Of a stretch of DNA of 18,959 nucleotides, positions 1,582 through 18,244 are shown piece by piece. Positions within the stretch are counted from its first letter, which is position 1, and each line of letters begins with the position of its first letter. Below the pieces are notes generated by a model. The model saw only the letters and a list, made by a program, of their open reading frames with translations. It did no database searches and had not been told where the DNA came from. Source of the stretch: Minisyncoccota bacterium (GTDB lineage: Bacteria > Patescibacteriota > Minisyncoccia > Phycocordibacterales > DATDSR01); contig DATDSR010000026.1 of NCBI GenBank assembly GCA_036517855.1, forward strand, positions 1 to 18,959, given 5' to 3'. Both the position numbers and the translations under genes were made by a program.

Positions 1582-3952
<2,371 letters not shown>

Positions 3953-8214: not shown

Positions 8215-9270
8215 CTAGCTTCCTCCAAACGTGCGATTTCTATTGCCGTATTCGGCTAGGGCGAGTTGCATTTGGTCGGGGGTGAAGTCGGGGAAGTGGA
8301 GCGGGGTGAAGTAGAGTTCGGCGTAGACTCCCTGCCAGGGCATCATACCCGAGAGGCGCTGTTCGCCGCTTGTGCGGATGATGAGGTCCGGGTCGGGCAG
8401 TCCGGCAGTATCAAGCGCTTCGTTGATGCTCTCCTCGCTCACTCCCCCATTCTTACTTGCCTTTTGCGCCGCCCTAATAATTTCATCGCGTCCACCATAA
8501 TCTAATGCCATCGAAAATGTTTTACCGGCAAATTGAGCTGTTTGCTTTTCTAAATCTGCAAGACCACTGGCGAGCTTTGGATCTAATCTATCTTTGCGAC
8601 CCAAATGACGGAACGAAATTTTATCTTTTACAAGCTCCTTGCCCAAGTCTTTAACGGCTTGGGTGAAGGCCTTCATAAGCCAAGCGACCTCGTCAGCCGA
8701 GCGAGTCCAGTTCTCCGTAGAGAACCCCCAAAAGGTGATGTGCTCAACTTCAGTATCTTTAATAAATTTCAAAAGCTCTTTGGTGCGCTCAATCCCCTCT
8801 TTGTGACCTTGCCAAACCATGAGCCCGCGCTCTTTAGCCCAGCGGCGATTGCCATCTGGGATAATCACAACGTGCTTAGGTATTTTCAAAATCGTCTTCT
8901 CCACCTTCCTATCAACTCTGTTTAAAACACGCCGACCGAGATTAGTGAGTGCGTGCACTTGATCCACCACCATCGAGCCGTCATCGCGTGATACTTGGAA
9001 TTTATCAAACTCCCCCGTCGCCTCGCTCCAATTAAATGACAGGCCATCCACGTGGGCAAGCAAAGAACCGCGATAGCACCAGTCGAGCAACTTGCGTAGT
9101 GCCGCCTCGCCCCCATCACCCGTGGCCTCGGCCACAATCTCCACTTTGCCATTTGGCAAGTTACGGGCAAAACCAACAAGCCCGCAAGAGTCGGCCACCC
9201 GTTTAGCAGAAGCACGGTAAAAGACGCCTTGCACCCGCCCACTGACGAAAATCTCCAAACGTTTGTCCAT
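8215..9270 (-). CDS. uppS: Acylphosphatase domain fused to undecaprenyl-diphosphate synthase (cis-prenyltransferase)
   Basis: 351 aa. The first ~95 residues carry acylphosphatase signatures (VSGRVQGVFYR, GFARNLPNGKVEIVAE). The last ~220 residues carry UppS motifs (HVVIIPDGNRRWAKERG, FWGFSTENWTRSADEV, IRTSGEQRLSGMMPWQGVYAELYF). Confidence 0.9.
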   Translation of the reverse strand: MDKRLEIFVSGRVQGVFYRASAKRVADSCGLVGFARNLPNGKVEIVAEATGDGGEAALRKLLDWCYRGSLLAHVDGLSFNWSEATGEFDKFQVSRDDGSMVVDQVHALTNLGRRVLNRVDRKVEKTILKIPKHVVIIPDGNRRWAKERGLMVWQGHKEGIERTKELLKFIKDTEVEHITFWGFSTENWTRSADEVAWLMKAFTQAVKDLGKELVKDKISFRHLGRKDRLDPKLASGLADLEKQTAQFAGKTFSMALDYGGRDEIIRAAQKASKNGGVSEESINEALDTAGLPDPDLIIRTSGEQRLSGMMPWQGVYAELYFTPLHFPDFTPDQMQLALAEYGNRNRTFGGS

Positions 9271-9285
9271 CTAAATCAATTTATG

Positions 9286-9358
9286 TGCACTCTGCAGGGA
9301 TCGAACCTGCGACCTTGCGAATGTGAATCGCACGCTCTACCAACTGAGCTAAGAGTGC
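9286..9358 (-). tRNA. tRNA-Val (anticodon CAC)
   Basis: Manual cloverleaf: acceptor GCACTCT/AGAGTGC, D arm GCTC-AGTTGGTA-GAGC, anticodon arm TGCGA-TTCACAT-TCGCA, T arm GCAGG-TTCGATC-CCTGC, discriminator A. CCA is not encoded. Confidence 0.9.
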
Positions 9359-9367
9359 GCATTCGCA

Positions 9368-9396
9368 ATAGTATCTATAACTAGCCATTTTAGCAA
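9368..9396 (-). promoter_or_regulatory. Sigma70-like promoter for tRNA-Val (and probably the downstream uppS fusion)
   Basis: On the minus strand: -35 TTGCTA (9391-9396), 17-nt spacer, -10 TACTAT (9368-9373), 9 nt before the tRNA 5' end. Confidence 0.5.
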
Positions 9397-9404
9397 TTGG
9401 TGTC

Positions 9405-9449
9405 ATATAAAAAACCGAGCCCGCCACGTCCCCTAACGGGACGGGCGGG
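9405..9449 (-). terminator. Rho-independent terminator after the 43-aa ORF
   Basis: On the minus strand, a GC-rich stem of about 12 bp with two bulges (9420-9433 / 9438-9449, loop GTTA in the minus-strand reading, TAAC on the plus strand) is followed by CTCGGTTTTTTAT. Confidence 0.6.
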
Positions 9450-9457
9450 TGACGTGG

Positions 9458-9589
9458 TCAAAGGTGGAAGACAAGGGCGATAGCGTTCCAGGCTCCCCAC
9501 CACATGACTCCACACGCAAAGATTGCAACCGCATAGTCGGCCCAGGAGTTGTGACTGATGTGAACCGGAGTCAAATTTTCGTTGGTCAT
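9458..9589 (-). CDS. Small hydrophobic peptide (43 aa), hypothetical
   Basis: MTNENLTPVHISHNSWADYAVAIFACGVMWWGAWNAIALVFHL. A strong SD GGGAGGAGG lies about 10 nt upstream of the ATG at 9589. It has its own promoter (9615-9642) and terminator (9405-9449), and one predicted TM helix. Confidence 0.5.
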   Translation of the reverse strand: MTNENLTPVHISHNSWADYAVAIFACGVMWWGAWNAIALVFHL

Positions 9590-9614
9590 GTTCGATTGTC
9601 CTCCTCCCAGAGTA

Positions 9615-9642
9615 AAGATAGCAAGTATTTGACAAAAGTCAA
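9615..9642 (-). promoter_or_regulatory. Promoter of the 43-aa ORF, with the -35 embedded in a TTGAC-N4-GTCAA palindrome
   Basis: On the minus strand: -35 TTGACT (9637-9642), 16-nt spacer, -10 TATCTT (9615-9620). The palindrome TTGACaaaaGTCAA spans 9629-9642. Confidence 0.5.
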
Positions 9643-9683
9643 GGGGCATTATTTCGGATTGCCTGTCAACCAAATATAATCCG

Positions 9684-9692
9684 TGGTATAAA
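9684..9692 (+). promoter_or_regulatory. Possible extended -10 promoter for tRNA-Pro/tRNA-Ala
   Basis: TGgTATAAA at 9684-9692 lies about 14 nt before the tRNA-Pro 5' end. The -35 is poor. Confidence 0.3.
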
Positions 9693-9705
9693 TACTTCCG
9701 TAATA

Positions 9706-9776
9706 CGGAATGTAGTATAGTGGTAATATACGCCCTTCGGGAGGGCGAGCCCCGAGTTCGATTCTCGGCATTCCGA
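9706..9776 (+). tRNA. tRNA-Pro (anticodon CGG)
   Basis: Manual cloverleaf: acceptor CGGAATG/CATTCCG (C1-G72, typical of bacterial tRNA-Pro), anticodon arm CGCCC-TTCGGGA-GGGCG, T arm CCGAG-TTCGATT-CTCGG, discriminator A. Confidence 0.85.
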
Positions 9777-9777
9777 C

Positions 9778-9850
9778 GGGCCCGTAGCTCATCTGGTAGA
9801 GCGCGTCATTCGCATTGACGAGGTAAGGAGTTCGACTCTCCTCGGGTCCA
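9778..9850 (+). tRNA. tRNA-Ala (anticodon CGC)
   Basis: Acceptor GGGCCCG/CGGGTCC containing the G3:U70 alanine identity pair, D arm GCTC-ATCTGGTA-GAGC, anticodon arm CGTCA-TTCGCAT-TGACG, T arm AGGAG-TTCGACT-CTCCT. It starts 1 nt after tRNA-Pro and CCA is not encoded. Confidence 0.9.
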
Positions 9851-9887
9851 CTGCTTCGTTAAGACTACGCAGTGCAATCACAAACTT

Positions 9888-11705
9888 ATGGAAGGTGAAA
9901 AGAAAAATAATGTAACACGATCGGCGATTACTGAAATGCTGCGTAACGGGCGGCGCGTGCTTGGTATGGCCTACAGGGCCAAGCCTGGTCTGATGATAGG
10001 AATATTAATAGTGTTCGCCATCGCCGCGGCGGCGGGTTTCGGATCTTCAGGTACCCGAGCTTTGCTCATTAACGAGCTCGTGGCTCTGCCTGGTAACGGT
10101 TGGAGCAATTCAATCATCTTACTGCTACTCGCTACCCTGCTTATGAATATCTTACCAGATGTCATCGGCCAACTTCAGGAATATTGGCGATGGAAGTTGT
10201 GGTTCGTGATGGAGGAAGAGTTGAACGTATTACTTCTCAAGCAACGTGGGCTCCTCGATATCGCCACGCACGAGGATCCTAAGACACAAGATCTATTCAC
10301 CCGAGTGAATGAAGCGGGTGTGTGGCGAATGAGCAACTTCGTGCAGAGGATGCTCTTCGTTTTGCAAAACTTAATTGAGATCGTTTTAGCTGGATTGATT
10401 ATCCTCGCCTTCAAGTGGTGGGTTTTCCTCATCGTTTTCTTGGGAGTCATCCCCACCCTCATAGTCGAAGCCAAATACAGTCGAGGCGTCTACGGCATAG
10501 ACACAGCCGGAGCCGAGGTGAAGCGTCGTTATTGGGACTTGGGTCATCGCTTCAAGAATCTCTCGGACTTAGTTGAGATCAAACTCACCGGCTTGACCAA
10601 AAATTTTACCGAGCGCATAGTTGCGCTCTTTCGTCAGTTCAGAGGTCCGGAGGAGGCCAAAGAGAGAGCTAAGTTTGTACGCGGAGCAAGCGCTACCCTA
10701 CTCTCCAATGTCACCATCGCCGTGGCCCTCGGCTGGACAATCGATCAAGTGCTCGGAGGAACGATGCAAGTGGGTACTCTCACGTTCATTTTCACCTCAA
10801 TTTATACTCTACGCCAATCACTCTCGGGCCTACTCCAAAACTTGGCCAACCAGTACAAAGATAGCCTCTACCTCACAGATACATTCGCCTTCCTAGATCT
10901 AGCGCCCAGACTTGACACCACCAAATCACATCAACAAATCACGACAGGCAAAACTCCCTCAATAGTCTTCGAGAATGTAAGCTTCGGCTACAAAACTGGC
11001 ACGAGCCCAATCCTAAAGGGTGTCAACCTGCGTATAGACTCGGGCGAGAAGTTGGCCATAGTGGGCGTCAATGGTGCGGGCAAGACAACTCTCATAAAAC
11101 TCCTTTGCCGCTTCTACGACCCTACTGGGGGCAGGATCCTGGTAGATGGCATAGACCTGCGCGAGATTGATCTTGCTAGCTGGTACGACACCTTGGGCGC
11201 TATTTTTCAAGACTACTCGAGATACCACTTTACGGTCAAAGAATCGATTGCCGTGGGCACGCCGGGTATTGGGCCCGTTATGGAGAATGTAGTCACCGCC
11301 GCCCACAACGCCGAGGCCAACATTTTTATCGAGGAGTTTGAAAAGGGCTATGACCAACAACTTGGGCAAGAGTTTGAAGGTGGCGTACAGCCATCCACCG
11401 GTCAGTGGCAAAAGCTCGCTCTTGCCCGCACCTTCTATCGTGACCCGCGCATATTCATCCTAGATGAGCCCACTTCTTCCATTGACGCCGAGGCCGAGGC
11501 CAAGATTTTCGACAAGCTCGAGGCCTTGCCCGACGATCGCACCGTCATCCTAATCTCTCATCGCTTCTCCACCGTACGTCATGCCAATAAGATTGTAGTT
11601 ATAGAAAGTGGCACAATCAGCGAAGGGGGTTCACACGAAGAGTTGCTAAAGCTTGACGGCACCTACGCCCGCCTCTTCAAGTTGCAAGCAAAAGGTTACG
11701 AATAA
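9888..11705 (+). CDS. ABC transporter, fused permease/ATP-binding exporter (MsbA / multidrug type)
   Basis: 605 aa. The N-terminal half has multiple TM helices. The C-terminal NBD has Walker A GVNGAGKTT, a signature-like STGQWQKLALAR, Walker B IFILDEPTSSID and H-loop ISHR. Confidence 0.93.
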   Translation: MEGEKKNNVTRSAITEMLRNGRRVLGMAYRAKPGLMIGILIVFAIAAAAGFGSSGTRALLINELVALPGNGWSNSIILLLLATLLMNILPDVIGQLQEYWRWKLWFVMEEELNVLLLKQRGLLDIATHEDPKTQDLFTRVNEAGVWRMSNFVQRMLFVLQNLIEIVLAGLIILAFKWWVFLIVFLGVIPTLIVEAKYSRGVYGIDTAGAEVKRRYWDLGHRFKNLSDLVEIKLTGLTKNFTERIVALFRQFRGPEEAKERAKFVRGASATLLSNVTIAVALGWTIDQVLGGTMQVGTLTFIFTSIYTLRQSLSGLLQNLANQYKDSLYLTDTFAFLDLAPRLDTTKSHQQITTGKTPSIVFENVSFGYKTGTSPILKGVNLRIDSGEKLAIVGVNGAGKTTLIKLLCRFYDPTGGRILVDGIDLREIDLASWYDTLGAIFQDYSRYHFTVKESIAVGTPGIGPVMENVVTAAHNAEANIFIEEFEKGYDQQLGQEFEGGVQPSTGQWQKLALARTFYRDPRIFILDEPTSSIDAEAEAKIFDKLEALPDDRTVILISHRFSTVRHANKIVVIESGTISEGGSHEELLKLDGTYARLFKLQAKGYE

Positions 11706-11709
11706 TTTT

Positions 11710-11889
11710 GTGGTGTTATCTTAACATTTGCGCGAACCCATTTCGAGAGCCAAAGTTGATGAGTGGCTAAATTAAAATGGTGCGTCCCCGCCTGTGGTCG
11801 GTGAGTACACCGCCCACCCCGCACGCCATCCCCAAGGGCCTCTACATTTTTGTATTTTTCGCGCGCGACTTCGGGGTTCGCAATATGGA
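11710..11889 (-). repeat. Copy B of the repeat family, inverted relative to copies A and C
   Basis: The reverse complement aligns with 16721-16900. The inner part (11771-11889 vs 16721-16836) is roughly 85% identical by manual alignment. The outer ~65 nt are diverged but of similar length, with an equivalent hairpin (TTTG-CGCGAA-cccat-TTCGAG-agc-CAAA, 11727-11754). It begins 5 nt after the ABC exporter stop. Confidence 0.85.
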
Positions 11890-12276: not shown

Positions 12277-13305
12277 ATGTACGCAGATACGGCATTAAAA
12301 AAATATCACAAATACTTCGCACCATTCTTGACCCCGTCTCAAACTAAGAGATTGTTCACAAGGCTGGAGAGAGTTTCTTGCAACATAGCTCCAATAAATC
12401 CCGCCACAGGAAATACGCAAACGAGCGTAAGATGGAAGCTTGATAAGGCGAACCCAAACTACGCAAGTGAAAAAGAATGTCGAGAAATATTTACCGCTCT
12501 CGTTGAGGATCTGTTGGGTTTCTTGGGTGTAAAGAAATTTAAAGCTCGTGGTTATTTACAGACCTACTCGGATAAAAATATCGCGAAAGAGGACGTATCT
12601 AGTTTCTTAAATACTAGCTCTAGAATAGGTTCTCTCGAACTACCTATAGACTACAAAAGGCCACTTAGGGAAGATGGCAAGCACACAAAAGATAATATTT
12701 ACTGGTTTTCGCCTTTTACCAAGATAGTTAATTTAAGAAATTGGGTCGGAAATGAAAATATTGTTACCAAGATACAAGTAAAATCATATCTGACCGACAG
12801 AAGGCAAACAGGCGACTACCAGACAAATCGAGAGATTCGCTGGGAAACACATCCAAAGTCTCCTCAGTACGCTTCGAGAGGAGACTGCATGCTCATTGAA
12901 GCTAAACTATTAGCTCAAATATCCATTTTTGTTGGGGCACCTGACCTACCCGTGGATTTAATCGAAGTTGTAGAGGAAGTATTGGGCAGTAAATTTGTAA
13001 AAGATAGTTTCAAATGTCCCATATCCGGGAAACCAATTTTCTTTAACGAATTTTATGAAAAGGTAGCGAGCCCGGTGCATGGAAGATCAGGTTTCCAAGT
13101 CGGACATTTAAATCCGCTCGCATCTACAGGTCGTCATATTGCATCAAATACATCATGGATAACTGACCTAGGGAATCGTGTTCAAGGAGAATCTTCTCTA
13201 GAGCAAATCACAAATGATATTTTCTTCATGGCCAACTTCCACAAAGAGCGTCAGTCTCTAGATTGGAGTGAAGTTGAATCTATTGCAAAGAAAACACAGA
13301 GTTAA
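12277..13305 (+). CDS. Putative restriction endonuclease (C-terminal HNH / beta-beta-alpha-Me-like motif)
   Basis: 342 aa and low GC. It sits directly downstream of the C gene and is convergent with the methyltransferase. The C-terminal motif is FQVGHLNPLASTGRHIASNTSWITDLGNRVQG (spacing of the H...N...N type). I recognise no closer family. Confidence 0.55.
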   Translation: MYADTALKKYHKYFAPFLTPSQTKRLFTRLERVSCNIAPINPATGNTQTSVRWKLDKANPNYASEKECREIFTALVEDLLGFLGVKKFKARGYLQTYSDKNIAKEDVSSFLNTSSRIGSLELPIDYKRPLREDGKHTKDNIYWFSPFTKIVNLRNWVGNENIVTKIQVKSYLTDRRQTGDYQTNREIRWETHPKSPQYASRGDCMLIEAKLLAQISIFVGAPDLPVDLIEVVEEVLGSKFVKDSFKCPISGKPIFFNEFYEKVASPVHGRSGFQVGHLNPLASTGRHIASNTSWITDLGNRVQGESSLEQITNDIFFMANFHKERQSLDWSEVESIAKKTQS

Positions 13306-15409
13306 GTTTATTGACCATTGCAAAAGTGTGTTCTTTTGTCTTTTCCTTTAGAGTAATGATATCTTTTACTTCTTGGTCAATGTCACTAAGGGTTTGAAGA
13401 TTTCGTGGAGTCGGAATTAAGAGGTCATAAATCCTTTTGCCAAGCGAATCTATGATGTCCTGCGTCAGTTGTTTAGACTTAATTTGTCTCTGTACCCATC
13501 GAGATGAAAGAAGTCCTAGTAGGTTATAGGCCGTTAGACCTATTTCGTTAGAAAGCACTCTAATTTTATAAATATGACTCTGATAAATAATCTCAGTATC
13601 AAATTTGGTAATCATTGCAAGCGTTCCAATCAAGTATGTGCCGTCCTTAACCATAAGAATATCACCGGCTTGAATATCCTGTTTGTTTTTTAGCTTCTCG
13701 TAGATCGACCGCTCAACTCTATGCTTTGCATCATTCTTAACCTCCCAATTCGTTAAGTCAGAAGTTCTTATATAAGGTATATCTCCTGTACCATATGCCA
13801 GTTTTCCAATCTCGTCTCCCGTAGAAATCTCCAAAATATTCCTTTCGACAAGCTCCCGAATAGTAACCAAGTGTGAATCAACCGAAAGACTATTTTTATC
13901 ATTTTCTAAATCTGCGTCATAATACTTTGGAGCCAAAATATTATCATCAACACGATCTGCTAGTAGCATGTAGCCTAAATTGCTGCTCTCGGTGTAGGTT
14001 TTATTCCTGAATTTCAGATAATTACTCAAAATTCCAGGAAGGTCATCGTGGGGAATTATGTTTCCCCTAGAATCATGTCCGCACCACTTGGCCTCCGCAA
14101 AAAATATCGACCTTTCAACTGTATCACTACCATCCCTTCTTCTAACAATCATGAGATCCGTCTTTGTATGCGTGCCGCCCTTCCCTGAAATTTTAAAAAG
14201 TGACTCAGGCATGCCAATCACACACTCAACATCGGAATTATTAAGAATATATTGGACTGTACCTTTGTAATTCTTATTCGATAAAAGACTTTCTGGCACA
14301 ACAGTTGCAAGTAGACCTCCATTTTTAAGTGCTCGGATATTTCTTTCCATAAAAATTGCCTGTGGGGGCGTGTTGACGTTTAGGGTATCGGTCTTCTTAT
14401 ATGAACCATTATTACCAGACCATTTGTAGCTTACGGTGTATTGCTTGGCAGTTTCTTCGTCGATTGATTTTATCTTTGATCCAAATGGGGGGTTGGTTAT
14501 TACGAGATCGAAATATCCATCTTTTATTTTTGGCAAGTCTGGGTTACCTACCAAAAGTGAATCGCCATCATAAATATGCGCTACTTCACCGGTAAGCAAC
14601 GTTAAATGGATCTTCGCAAGTCTGGCTAGTTTTTTATCTTTTTCAATGCCAAACATATTATTCTTTACGAAGGATTGGACGTCCTTCTCTGGGTAGCGCT
14701 CCTTAAGGTACAGGTAGGTAGCCGTTAGGAAACTACAGGCACCACACGCAGTGTCTATAATTTTCCATGTGGGTTTTGGATCAACTGCTCTAACCAAAAA
14801 ATCTACTGCAACCTTCGGTGTGAAAAATTGGCCTTCTTGGCCTCTTATGTGATTACCAATGAACACTTGGTATAAAGACGCTACTACGTCTATGTTGTGT
14901 TTTTGGAATTCTCGTAGTTGACGGAGTCCTTGGGCTACGTAGTCTATCGAATGAGGATCTAGAAGTAGCTCCTCATCAGGACCATAAAAATCAGGAAACT
15001 TTGATCTGATTTTTGTAAATTCAGCTCTAAATACCTTAGAATTTTCAAATATGTCTTCAGAAATGCGTTTTTCGACAGTATCACTCAAGCAAAAGAAAAC
15101 TTTAAGAACCTCTTCGAGCAAGGCCTCATCTCGACTCATCCCCACCGCTCTTCCCGCAAGATAATTACGAATATTCCTAATGATAGCGGAAGGTTCGAGG
15201 GATAATTGTAAGTTTGCTTTTTGGTCTTTCATTTCCTGTTGAGCGGGAATCATCCCACAGTTTATGTAATTATAGTACATTTTGCTGAGTGAGGAACAGC
15301 GATTATCCACAGGGTTGACGTAATATCTAGCTAAACTACGTAAAAATATGATCGGCCTTTTAATGTCAGTATTTAAAAACAGAAAAGCCCCCACAGATGT
15401 AGAGTCCAT
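13280..15409 (-). CDS. N6-adenine DNA methyltransferase (gamma class, HsdM-like) fused to a C-terminal HsdS-type target-recognition domain
   Basis: Up to 709 aa. It has FFTPKVAVDFLV, motif I IIDTACGACSFL and motif IV DLVITNPPFG. The C-terminal ~200 aa resemble a type I S-subunit TRD (GDIPYIRTSDL...GDILMVKDGTYLIG...SHIYKIRV). The start is uncertain: ATGs at 15409, 15280, 15253 and 15232 are all possible, and the 15409 ATG sits inside a hairpin. The 3' end overlaps the R gene by 26 bp. Confidence 0.9.
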   Translation of the reverse strand: MDSTSVGAFLFLNTDIKRPIIFLRSLARYYVNPVDNRCSSLSKMYYNYINCGMIPAQQEMKDQKANLQLSLEPSAIIRNIRNYLAGRAVGMSRDEALLEEVLKVFFCLSDTVEKRISEDIFENSKVFRAEFTKIRSKFPDFYGPDEELLLDPHSIDYVAQGLRQLREFQKHNIDVVASLYQVFIGNHIRGQEGQFFTPKVAVDFLVRAVDPKPTWKIIDTACGACSFLTATYLYLKERYPEKDVQSFVKNNMFGIEKDKKLARLAKIHLTLLTGEVAHIYDGDSLLVGNPDLPKIKDGYFDLVITNPPFGSKIKSIDEETAKQYTVSYKWSGNNGSYKKTDTLNVNTPPQAIFMERNIRALKNGGLLATVVPESLLSNKNYKGTVQYILNNSDVECVIGMPESLFKISGKGGTHTKTDLMIVRRRDGSDTVERSIFFAEAKWCGHDSRGNIIPHDDLPGILSNYLKFRNKTYTESSNLGYMLLADRVDDNILAPKYYDADLENDKNSLSVDSHLVTIRELVERNILEISTGDEIGKLAYGTGDIPYIRTSDLTNWEVKNDAKHRVERSIYEKLKNKQDIQAGDILMVKDGTYLIGTLAMITKFDTEIIYQSHIYKIRVLSNEIGLTAYNLLGLLSSRWVQRQIKSKQLTQDIIDSLGKRIYDLLIPTPRNLQTLSDIDQEVKDIITLKEKTKEHTFAMVNKLNSVFSLQ

Positions 15410-15423
15410 ACGGACTTTTCTGT
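15379..15423 (-). terminator. Possible terminator of the high-GC gene
   Basis: On the minus strand: ACAGAAAAG, a 27-nt loop (with the inner hairpin AGTCC-gtat-GGACT), then CTTTTCTGT followed by TTTTAAAT. It lies 36 nt after the stop at 15459. Confidence 0.3.
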
Positions 15424-15458: not shown

Positions 15459-16232
15459 CTAGTTGACCTTCCTGACCGCCCGCCAGTCCACGAGGACGCC
15501 GAACGGGAAGCCGGCCTTGATGCTCATGCTTGGGAAGTTGGGCCCAGTATCGCCCTCGTCCTTCAAGCGCTGGACCGAGACCAGATGGAACTTGTGGCAA
15601 CTCATACCGACGACGAGCTTCCACCTACCCGGCTCCAGAATGTTCGCACCTTCGGGGTAGCAGTCGGTGACGGTCTCGGTGACCTCCACGATGCTGCCGT
15701 TGGGTGGAGCGAAGACATCGCACTCAGTGTTCCCGCAGGTTTGGACGGAGCCGAACTCTCGCTCGATGTGTTGCCTGGCCTCGTCCTTGTCCGCGGTGGC
15801 GTAGATCGGAAGACACGTCTCGGGGCCAGCTGCGCTTGGCAGACTACCACGACCCCCGGAAGTGGAGATAGCGGGCCGGCCGTCGAGGTGGAATTCGAAG
15901 TCGAAGTGGCGGAAGTATTCCTTCTCTCCACTCTGGTAGCCCCTGACCTCGAGGCTCAAACCCGGTCCACCGCGAAGCGTGATGCAGGCTTCGACACGGT
16001 TAGCGTCGCGGAAGAGCTCTCTGACCGACACGCTCTCCTCGTGACAACCGCAGGTGTACTTGCCGAAATCGCTGTAGCAATCGCTGGAAACCCTGCCGCC
16101 CATGCGGTCGGTTCCGAACATCACGAGTTCTCCGAAGAGTCTGAGAGCGGCACGATGCGCCACTGAGTACGTCCTGTTCTCGGCCAGTCGGGATCGAAGA
16201 GTCTTGTCGAGGAACAAACTGATCTTCTTCAT
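15459..16232 (-). CDS. Orphan Cys-rich cytoplasmic protein, high-GC (probable horizontal acquisition)
   Basis: 257 aa from the ATG at 16232, preceded by the SD AAAAGGAG (16241-16248). Third codon positions are strongly G/C-biased, and the local GC is about 60% against about 37% for the adjacent RM genes. It has 10 Cys (CGCH, CGNTEC and others) and no signal peptide or TM helix. I recognise no family. Confidence 0.7.
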   Translation of the reverse strand: MKKISLFLDKTLRSRLAENRTYSVAHRAALRLFGELVMFGTDRMGGRVSSDCYSDFGKYTCGCHEESVSVRELFRDANRVEACITLRGGPGLSLEVRGYQSGEKEYFRHFDFEFHLDGRPAISTSGGRGSLPSAAGPETCLPIYATADKDEARQHIEREFGSVQTCGNTECDVFAPPNGSIVEVTETVTDCYPEGANILEPGRWKLVVGMSCHKFHLVSVQRLKDEGDTGPNFPSMSIKAGFPFGVLVDWRAVRKVN

Positions 16233-16329
16233 CGCGTTTTCTCCTTTTTGAGTGGGCACGCTAGAGCCCAAGCAGAGAGGACAAACTCCGACGAAACGTC
16301 GGTCTATCTGTGACCCCTCATCTTTCGGA

Positions 16330-16358
16330 AGCATATCAAATCCCTTGACGAAAGTCAA
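16330..16358 (-). promoter_or_regulatory. Sigma70-like promoter of the high-GC gene, with the -35 inside a TTGAC-N4-GTCAA palindrome
   Basis: On the minus strand: -35 TTGACT (16353-16358), 17-nt spacer, -10 TATGCT (16330-16335). The palindrome CCTTGACgaaaGTCAAGG spans 16343-16360. The predicted leader is about 95 nt and contains the hairpin CCGACG-ttt-CGTCGG. Confidence 0.5.
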
Positions 16359-16392
16359 GGTGCAGTGTCCAGTACAAATGGGGAATGAGTTC

Positions 16393-16825
16393 GGGGAGCC
16401 GTGCCCGCCAAGGGCGGGCACCCCCTGTGCGCGCACGGGAGGGCGGGGCAAGCACAGTTAGATAGAGCCAGCCCTTCCCACCAAGGAGGGGTTTGGGGAG
16501 GAATTGGGGGGAAGGGCTGATCCATACTTCTCCCGTTCCCCCAGTCACGCCATTCATTGGCGTGACTGAATAATAGCGCGTCTCCGCCTCACTCTCCGAA
16601 TGCGCCAGAGCAGCAAACCGGTCGGGCATACAAATAACCACAACATTTTGATATAGTAAGAGGACGGCTTGCTGTGAGGGCGCATTCGGGGAGTCTCGCA
16701 TCGCCATCACTCAAGGCCTATCCATATTGCGAACCCCGAAGTCGCGCGCGCAAAAAACAAATACAGCAAAGGCCTTGGGGGATGGCGTGCGGGGTGGGCG
16801 GTACTCCGCACACAGGCGGAGACGC
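16393..16825. other. Hairpin-dense non-coding region with nested long-range helices (candidate structured RNA or nested palindromic elements)
   Basis: Local hairpins are at 16401-16421 (9 bp), 16424-16439, 16469-16519 (11+4 bp) and 16542-16568 (11 bp). The nested helices are: H1 16578-16589/16814-16825 (12 bp); H2 16591-16606/16679-16694 (16 bp, one T.G); H2b 16611-16623/16663-16674; H3 16698-16708/16781-16790; H4 16710-16718/16771-16779. Confidence 0.4.
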
Positions 16826-16900
16826 ACCGATTTAATAGCAGGGTTTAATCACAGCGGTGTCGTCTCGAAGTAAGTTCGAGCCGACTCGTAGATACTCCAC
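16721..16900 (+). repeat. Copy C of the repeat family, directly abutting the murA start
   Basis: 16761-16900 is about 98% identical to 1-139. 16721-16900 is the inverted partner of 11710-11889. It ends 12 nt before the murA ATG. The terminal TCCAC (16896-16900) can pair with GTGGA (16909-16913), which includes the A of the start codon. Confidence 0.9.
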
Positions 16901-16912
16901 TAACAAAAGTGG

Positions 16913-18244
16913 ATGTCAACATTTATCGTTAACGGCGGGGAAAAATTAGGTGGTGTTTATGAAGTTTCTGGGGCTAAGAATGCTGGTCCCAAACTTATCA
17001 TTGCCGCCATGCTTAGCGACAAGGAGTGTTTACTGCGCAATATTCCCAGAATTTCTGACACAGAGAAAATTATGTCGGCCATCCGACAGATGGGCGGAGA
17101 GTGCTCGTGGAGCGGTGACCATGAGGTTAAAGTTAACTGCGCTAATCTCAAGGACCCGCACGTGCCCGATGTTGTGTTAACGGCGAGGCACGCAGTGCTC
17201 TTCATCGGTGCAACGCTGGCGCGATTAGGCAAACTGCGGATAGAGAAGATTGGTGGCGACAAAATCGGCAAGCGGCCAATCGATCGTCTGCTCGGAGGTC
17301 TTGAGAGTCTTGGAGCCCAGGTCATTGAGAAGAATGGCGTCCTAGAAATGAGCATGCCAGAGCGGCTAGCCTCGCGCGATTACACCTTCGCCAAGAACAC
17401 TCACACAGGCACGGAGTCGCTTATACTCGGGTCAATTTTTAATTCAGGAATAGTGACAATCAGGAATGCCGCAGAAGAACCCGAAGTAGATAACCTCATA
17501 GAGTTCACAAATGCCATGGGTGCGAAAGTTCGACGCATCGACCCAAGAGTGATTGAAATTACGGGAGTGCCAAAATTACTGGGCGCAGCAACTGGCAAAT
17601 CTATGTATGATAGACTCGAGGCCGCCACAGCGCTTGCCCTAAATGTGATGAATGGTGGGGGAATCGAGGTACGGAATGTAGATCCCAAAATGGTGAAATT
17701 TTTCACCGACGCACTCGAGCAAATAGGCGCATCAGAACCCAGTACCAAGTACCTGGTACCTGTTACCTTGAAGACTGCTGTTCATCCAGGTTTCATCACG
17801 GACCTTCAACCGATCATGAGTTTGCTCTTGGCGTACAAGGGGGGTGGCAGATCGGAAATACACGAGATGATCTACGAGCAACGTTGGAGTGCTCTACAGG
17901 AGCTCGCCAAGATGGGGGTGAAGTATGAACTCTTCCAGCCCGCGGGCTACACAGCCAACGACTTCAACTTCAACGAGCGTGAGTTCCACAAGAACGACCC
18001 ATACGGAGCATACGTTTGGGGGCCAACTGAACTAAGGGCGGCAGAAGTGGAGTCGCGAGACGTGAGAGCGGGTATCACAGTCCTAATTGCGGCACTCTTT
18101 GCCCAGGGCGAGAGCAAAATCAACGACCCAGACAATCACATAGACAGAGGCTACGAAGATATAGTCGGCAAGCTCCAGCGCCTAGGCGCTGACATCAGGA
18201 GAATTGATTCCCCACTTCGCCAAGGCTACGCGGGGCAGGCATGA
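16913..18244 (+). CDS. murA: UDP-N-acetylglucosamine 1-carboxyvinyltransferase (MurA), Asp variant at the fosfomycin-target position
   Basis: 443 aa. The N-terminus FIVNGGEKLGGVYEVSGAKNA matches the MurA start. The active-site loop is KIGGDKIGKRPID (E. coli: PGGCTIGARPVD). HIDRGYEDIVGKLQRLGADI lies at the C-terminus. Confidence 0.93.
   Translation: MSTFIVNGGEKLGGVYEVSGAKNAGPKLIIAAMLSDKECLLRNIPRISDTEKIMSAIRQMGGECSWSGDHEVKVNCANLKDPHVPDVVLTARHAVLFIGATLARLGKLRIEKIGGDKIGKRPIDRLLGGLESLGAQVIEKNGVLEMSMPERLASRDYTFAKNTHTGTESLILGSIFNSGIVTIRNAAEEPEVDNLIEFTNAMGAKVRRIDPRVIEITGVPKLLGAATGKSMYDRLEAATALALNVMNGGGIEVRNVDPKMVKFFTDALEQIGASEPSTKYLVPVTLKTAVHPGFITDLQPIMSLLLAYKGGGRSEIHEMIYEQRWSALQELAKMGVKYELFQPAGYTANDFNFNEREFHKNDPYGAYVWGPTELRAAEVESRDVRAGITVLIAALFAQGESKINDPDNHIDRGYEDIVGKLQRLGADIRRIDSPLRQGYAGQA

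Follow-up and report, generated by a model that had tools for sequence, protein, structure and literature searches.

The 257-residue open reading frame (ORF) P0001, on the minus strand at positions 15459-16232 of contig DATDSR010000026.1 from a Minisyncoccota bacterium, is best read as a monocistronic accessory gene built from two protein families. Its translation would be gated by a pseudoknot in the leader, it would have been exchanged within Patescibacteria, and it would have no coupling to the restriction-modification (RM) genes beside it. We put the probability of this combined reading at about 70%. The window analysed here, 18,959 nt long, is the entire contig (C26), one of the 60 that make up an 835-kb genome of 49.6% GC and 96% completeness. 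Neither the fusion of two families nor the conserved leader is mentioned in the initial annotation of this DNA, which described an orphan, high-GC gene next to an RM system. Patescibacteria hold a large share of bacterial diversity, and most of their lineage-specific genes are uncharacterised. The locus offers a tractable handle on such genes, as it combines a rare, fast-evolving and confidently folded protein family with a tiny start-codon pseudoknot that is absent from Rfam.

The leader and its transcript

Alignment of the DNA upstream of family members reveals much stronger conservation in the 40 nt ahead of the ATG than in the proteins that follow. On the minus strand at 16232-16269, this leader is predicted to fold into an H-type pseudoknot. 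A 4-bp stem, P1, joins 16269-16266 with 16257-16254, and the loop that it closes, UAGCGU here and UAGCGA in most relatives, pairs with the six nucleotides that end on the A of the AUG. This second helix, P2, joins 16263-16258 with 16237-16232, with its last pair using that A (16232). The Shine-Dalgarno (SD) sequence of the gene, AAAGGAGAA, with its GGAG at 16244-16241, is placed in loop 3 of the fold. Across the family the leader follows the consensus N-GGC-C(C/A)-UAGCGA-GCC-N', then 8-14 nt that include AAGGAG, then A-UCGCG-AUG. It is present in 14 of the 15 leaders examined and stands ahead of 12 of 13 genes for stand-alone relatives of the N-terminal half of P0001 (hereafter the N family), at a fixed distance from the AUG and downstream of the promoter.

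The evidence for the pseudoknot comes from these 14 leaders, which represent 12 genomes. The outer P1 pair is CG in four, UA in four, GC in three and AU in two, with one mismatch. P2 carries two compensatory double changes, GCGU/ACGC in this genome and in G401, a genome of the same genus, and GUGA/UCAC at locus L015. Over nine pairs, 99.2% of cells in the alignment are paired and three pairs have changed on both sides. None of 500 shuffles reaches the covariation score, and controls with one strand slid along the other pair at only 17-49%. By this comparative evidence the leader qualifies as a predicted H-type pseudoknot, with crossing, covarying helices and a 3' strand of P2 that reaches the start codon. 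We regard it as a candidate member of a mechanistic class, the H-type pseudoknot translational operators, rather than of a sequence family.

The element is also specific to the family. An exact-pattern scan of 400 genomes of the phylum returned matches in only three, all of them gene-bearing and all just ahead of the start codon, and the reversed control pattern matched in none of the 400. A covariance model found exactly one copy in each of six genomes, including G401, which had been left outside the model. Rfam at gathering thresholds returned only tRNAs in the window, and a relaxed search (E <= 5) over 16150-16950 placed nothing over the leader. Five viral matches to the leader pattern were dismissed as chance, as they lie in high-GC phage DNA without an SD or an ORF.

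We propose that the pseudoknot gates translation and that a factor stabilising it would block access of the 30S subunit to the start codon. This factor could be the N-domain protein itself, which would then regulate its own synthesis as ribosomal protein S15 does, or it could be a small ligand, as for the preQ1-I or SAM-II riboswitches. The leader is more conserved than the coding sequence, which suggests feedback by the encoded protein. The autoregulatory leader of Escherichia coli rpsO (S15) is comparable in that a pseudoknot spans the SD and AUG of an mRNA for a small protein. In contrast to rpsO, the protein here is non-ribosomal and its binding of RNA putative, and two genomes carry the element ahead of unrelated small ORFs as well. 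Should the leader prove to be a riboswitch or an operator for autoregulation, it would join a very short list of regulatory RNAs that are particular to this radiation, and its partner, protein or ligand, would reveal the role of the protein family.

In its architecture, the leader resembles the preQ1-I, SAM-II/SAM-V and NAD+-II riboswitches. These too measure about 40 nt, have a short P1 whose loop pairs at the ribosome-binding site, an A-rich connecting loop and a conserved core with covarying outer pairs, and lie directly 5' of the start codon. It differs from them in the lack of an Rfam match (E <= 5), in its consensus, in the placement of the SD in loop 3, in a P2 that covers -5 to +1 rather than the SD, and in being tied to one protein family rather than to a metabolic regulon. 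A new ligand-sensing class of H-type pseudoknot riboswitch, so far almost confined to Patescibacteria, is a possible but doubtful further reading. The N family would then supply a small enzyme or binding protein that handles the ligand, with E66, R79, E81 and the Cys/His loop as the residues cited for that role, and the C domain described below and two small ORFs at loci L024 and L025 would be co-regulated partners. These two ORFs are preceded by a further copy of the leader (L024, 818-1083, before a 73-aa ORF; L025, 2250-2527, before a 77-aa ORF). Both directly follow a family gene, encode cysteines and are unrelated to it; comparison rejected them as relatives of the C domain. A 5' untranslated region (5'-UTR) hairpin, CCGACGTTTCGTCGG, lies upstream of the pseudoknot at 16288-16302 on the minus strand. 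Other family loci have a hairpin of different sequence at the same 5'-UTR position, as judged by eye.

The remaining signals around the gene point to a separate transcript. A sigma-70-type promoter, TTGACT-17-TATGCT, lies at 16330-16358 on the minus strand; the promoter and the SD had been recognised before, and we add a TG extension. All homologues begin with MKK(V/I)(T/S)LF, which identifies the ATG at 16232 as the real start in preference to a longer, TTG-initiated frame of 330 aa. An intrinsic terminator, an 18-bp hairpin followed by UUUUU, occupies 15374-15423 on the minus strand, 35 nt past the stop codon. A 98-nt segment around it has a folding energy of -35.7 kcal/mol (z = -4.2), which none of 200 shuffles equals. 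With its own promoter, SD and terminator, the gene is predicted to be monocistronic, and together with the comparative data that follow these signals show it, as far as sequence can, to be a genuine accessory gene on its own transcript. It had been placed downstream of the methyltransferase (M) gene. In the direction of transcription it is instead upstream of M, with the terminator (15423-15374) between the two. The ATG (15409) of the longest M frame (13280-15409) falls inside the terminator hairpin (15379-15423), so M must start further on. The methyltransferase probably starts at a downstream methionine with a promoter of its own; candidate -35/-10 sites are found at 15329-15302 and 15232-15205.

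The -35 hexamer of the ORF promoter sits within a palindrome, CCTTGACTTTCGTCAAGG (16343-16360), whose core, TTGAC-N4-GTCAA, has two copies in the window where 0.03 would be expected by chance. One copy is the promoter copy (16345-16358) and the other lies close to the tRNA cluster (9629-9642). The two palindromic -35 copies may represent a shared operator.

Two families in one reading frame

Standard searches returned little for P0001, in agreement with the initial annotation, which could not place it in a family. No family matched in Pfam, PADLOC or NCBIfam (E <= 1) or in PHROGs (E <= 0.1), the sequences of the PDB offered no meaningful match (best E = 0.2), and a word-index search with either the full protein or the N domain alone recovered only the query. 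Relatives surfaced only in an exhaustive HMMER search. Homologue searches covered 1.84 billion representatives and 185,579 species genomes, and among the representatives HMMER found 31 clusters besides the query. Of these, 28 match residues 1-125 and contain proteins 102-160 aa long, with E-values down to 7e-24 and 29-46% identity; the other three match residues 145-257 and contain proteins 122-194 aa long. The gene is thus no orphan. The suggestion, raised as an alternative, that it might be a spurious high-GC ORF is countered by the 31 clusters, by the conserved MKK start and by an N domain modelled at a mean confidence (pLDDT) of 91.

Because matches to the two families do not overlap and hhalign finds the two halves unrelated, we read the protein as a fusion. 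The same comparison rejects an internal duplication. The N domain (residues 1-125; 15858-16232, minus strand) belongs to a family of stand-alone proteins of about 130 aa with the motif MKKxTLFxDKxLR..AYRxAL..KFxCGCHxES..AHRVEAC..YRxGEK. R79 is the sole invariant residue of this family; K2, A29, E66, F74 and E81 are nearly invariant, and the cysteines of CGCH and EAC are common. A linker rich in Gly, Ser, Pro and Ala (residues 126-144; 15801-15857, minus strand), with GC contents of 0.74 at second and 0.53 at third codon positions, is predicted to be disordered (pLDDT <50). The C domain (residues 145-257; 15462-15800, minus strand) belongs to a very rare family, known from the three clusters and one metagenome locus. 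Across four sequences of this C family, C166, C171, C191 and H213 (C-x4-C...C...H) are invariant, as is a DWR motif. This invariant C-C-C-H pattern suggests a metal site.

The whole protein contains nine cysteines, one fewer than had been counted; the CGCH (residues 61-64) and CGNTEC (166-171) motifs are as reported, and so is the lack of a transmembrane or other hydrophobic segment (KD19 maximum 0.8). Family comparison therefore shows P0001 to be a predicted cytoplasmic fusion of two small-protein families that are separate elsewhere. The fusion is found in this contig only, where its cluster consists of two member sequences on one contig, and no C-family gene stands beside the N-family gene at any of 13 other loci (12 loci and G401). 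E66, R79, E81 and the Cys/His cluster of the N domain, and the CCCH pattern of the C domain, are starting points for work on function.

Structure prediction, which had been recommended together with a Foldseek comparison, yields a confident N domain and no relative in the PDB or BFVD. AlphaFold2 (AF2), with nine sequences, models this domain at pLDDT 91.2 and pTM 0.86, in the order strand 3-8, helices 10-18 and 21-41, Cys/His loop, helix 65-76 and four strands within 79-127. Foldseek of the N domain against the PDB gives a best E of 0.12 and TM-scores of at most 0.41-0.43, and Foldseek of the full-length model against the PDB and BFVD gives no match below E = 0.01. The modelling thus shows a confidently predicted alpha+beta domain without a solved structural relative.

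Two fold assignments were considered and set aside. The N-terminal beta(3-8)-alpha-alpha segment recalls the ribbon-helix-helix (RHH) proteins CopG, MetJ and Arc. No RHH model of Pfam matches at E <= 1, and the segment, with pLDDT of about 90, is part of a single 125-aa domain. The nearest structures in the PDB are the designed NTF2-like proteins 5tpj, 5u35 and 5trv, which likewise combine, within about 125 aa, a curved antiparallel sheet with helices packed against it. Against an NTF2-like fold, P0001 has an extra N-terminal strand, a Cys/His loop and no sequence-profile match. TM-scores to these designs are 0.33-0.43 with E >= 0.12; the closest matches, at TM 0.41-0.43 and E 0.12-0.29, are to designed proteins only and fall short of the TM of at least 0.5 and the significant E that we take to define the fold.

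Composition, distribution and rival explanations

The high GC of the ORF, reported at about 60% with G/C-biased third positions, is confirmed. Its GC of 60.5% lies at the 99.4th percentile of genome windows of the same size, and GC at codon positions 1, 2 and 3 is 57%, 47% and 77.5%. From its amino acids and the genome-wide codon usage, a third-position GC (GC3) of 0.55 is predicted; the excess of +0.22 is 2.8 standard deviations above the mean and ranks 8th among 796 ORFs. Thus, the high GC arises from codon choice and not from amino-acid content. It extends over both halves (GC3 0.74 in the N domain and 0.85 in the C domain). Expression-linked codon bias was considered as a cause and rejected: genes for EF-Tu, EF-G and ribosomal proteins have GC3 of only 0.49-0.63, so a high GC3 is no signature of expression in this genome. 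The sharp contrast claimed between the gene and its neighbours holds in part. The ORF is indeed atypical, but the contrast stems largely from the adjoining RM genes, which are AT-rich (GC 0.39-0.41, GC3 excess -0.17), whereas the flanking housekeeping genes for UppS, the ABC exporter and murA are of average composition.

This bias recurs across the family. Over its loci, N-family genes have GC3 of 0.51-0.77 against 0.30-0.68 for neighbouring genes, 10 of 11 other loci show a positive GC3 excess (mean +0.12), and the gene exceeds its own locus in total GC in 11 of 12. GC-richness is therefore a property of the family rather than the trace of a single transfer out of a high-GC organism. This corrects the earlier account of transfer from a high-GC host, as the family keeps its GC-rich codon usage in hosts that differ widely in GC.

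The genome contains some 15-20 further ORFs in a GC3-rich class (GC3 0.75-0.90), among them C25:35432-36118, C49:14289-14924, C57:345-1064, C13:11-793 and C55:11152-11580. The class includes hypothetical and Cys-rich proteins, an IS110-like transposase, TrpRS and an SPFH-like protein, and it is a second compositional population in the 835-kb genome.

The N family is rare, with members in 4 of the 400 genomes sampled from the phylum, and it is patchy within genera, with 2 of 4 genomes in the genus of the window and 1 of 3 in g89. Homologues of identified source are patescibacterial (Parcubacteria, Paceibacterota, Minisyncoccia), the one exception being a contig assigned to a Methylobacter bin; neither protein family has a relative among the viral contigs scanned. 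The same-genus homologue is 39% identical and lies at a different locus, whereas six other proteins of this genome pair are 59-91% identical. Neighbouring genes are not conserved and encode, for example, serine hydroxymethyltransferase (SHMT), a CMAS-type methyltransferase, NUDIX and UPF0102 proteins, xth and peptidoglycan (PG)-binding proteins. Comparison across these loci shows a family that appears accessory, fast-evolving and GC3-rich across its hosts, and the earlier view of an accessory, compositionally atypical gene in a variable region stands.

Two loci bring the gene close to recombinases. In a Parcubacteria metagenome-assembled genome (MAG), L024:96-2855, the gene and the 73-aa ORF lie between 99-nt inverted repeats that are 98% complementary; this cassette abuts a large serine recombinase with 159-nt inverted repeats of its own, followed by murA, and looks like an invertible or mobile cassette. 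At L023 a tyrosine recombinase enclosed by repeats directly adjoins the gene. Long repeats are absent from seven other family loci. At three loci (L016:5131-5871, L023:3445-4218 and L026:4026-4823), TrmB-type regulators are encoded no more than two genes away from an N-family gene, and a double Lrp/AsnC regulator (L027:119-1090) is divergent from the sole C-family locus recovered. A meaningful link between such regulators and the family is at most a weak lead.

Several observations weigh against the reading we favour. The family member at L026 lacks the leader altogether. No variation occurs in the inner P1 pairs or in three P2 pairs, and a protein- or DNA-level site could explain such conservation just as well. 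Cys/His residues are lost in several N-family members. The AF2 model of the C domain is poor (pLDDT <50): the full-length run had no alignment depth there, MAFFT having put the sole usable C-domain homologue (L027) onto the N domain. Finally, most family loci show no mobile-element genes, so that patchiness, composition and divergence are the only grounds for calling the gene mobile.

The rival readings differ in what they would replace. The 5' element might be a DNA-level operator or recombination site, or merely a strong ribosome-binding module, and not a regulatory pseudoknot. It is invariant at most positions, GGCyC-TAGC-GrGCC forms an imperfect palindrome, and the recurrence of the element before a second, unrelated small ORF at L024 and L025 resembles a portable translation-initiation cassette. 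We nonetheless consider this unlikely, since all four Watson-Crick combinations occur at the outer P1 pair, two independent double changes in P2 preserve strand-specific pairing with the -5 to +1 region, and the element always keeps its distance from the AUG on the transcribed side of the promoter. Somewhat less probable again is a role as anti-restriction or defence cargo tied functionally to the C-R-M module, as had been proposed. The gene lies 50 bp from the longest M frame in the same 5-kb block bracketed by inverted repeats, and its family evolves fast and is distributed patchily, as conflict genes often are. Yet, with a promoter of its own and a strong terminator, it is insulated from M, and its GC3 excess is opposite in sign to that of the RM genes. 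PADLOC, PHROGs and viral contigs hold no relative, and no RM or defence neighbour was recognised at 13 other N-family loci and one C-family locus, where not every ORF was profile-searched. The adjacency to a helix-turn-helix (HTH, C)-R-M block does recall C-protein-controlled type II RM modules with accessory genes; in contrast to these, the gene here has a separate transcript, the opposite composition and no recurrent association of its family with RM.

A recent transfer from a high-GC organism outside Patescibacteria, such as the host of an epibiont, would account for a GC3 excess that neither amino acids nor expression-linked bias explains. We regard it as very unlikely, given that the N-family relatives of identified source among 1.84 billion representatives and 185,579 species genomes are patescibacterial apart from the one Methylobacter-binned MAG contig, that the gene and the same-genus genome G401 share the GCGU/ACGC variant of the leader, and that the excess is family-wide while genes neighbouring it in its hosts have GC3 of 0.30-0.68. 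Least probable of all is that the fusion is an artefact of assembly or of a frameshift joining adjacent genes. It is seen in one contig only, in a cluster of two sequences, and L024 and L025 have a separate small ORF after the N-family gene; but the frame runs unbroken across the Gly/Ser/Pro linker of 19 residues, the junction between the halves retains no vestige of a stop codon, an SD or a leader, and both halves have an extreme GC3. We thus favour a pseudoknot-gated, two-family accessory gene that is functionally uncoupled from the RM module, as inferred from its transcription unit, composition and neighbourhoods. In our model, the gene is exchanged horizontally within Patescibacteria, and it would lie close to RM only because the ABC exporter and murA enclose a variable region, flanked by repeats, into which both were inserted.

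The repeat-flanked region

The gene had been placed inside a unit bracketed by inverted repeats (IRs). The arms, at 11771-11889 on the left and 16721-16836 on the right, are about 85% complementary and do bracket the gene, but they are not the private termini of an element. The right arm with its extension (16721-16903) is a copy of a dispersed repeat, and 16761-16903 is 97% identical to C26:1-142 (positions 1-142 of the window) and to C8:1-139, so the arms are copies of that repeat. The order of UppS, tRNA-Val/Pro/Ala, ABC exporter and murA (window 8215-11705) differs in each of three genomes of the same genus, and this rearrangement leaves no clean empty site to compare. tRNA genes stand at the breakpoints where the window is compared with L045 and L047. 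The repeat, of about 140 nt, is located upstream of murA and also starts contigs C26 and C8. On C8, at 2382-3707, lies a second murA-like frame that is 76% identical and has one in-frame TAG; it could be a paralogue, a pseudogene or a trace of strain heterogeneity in the bin.

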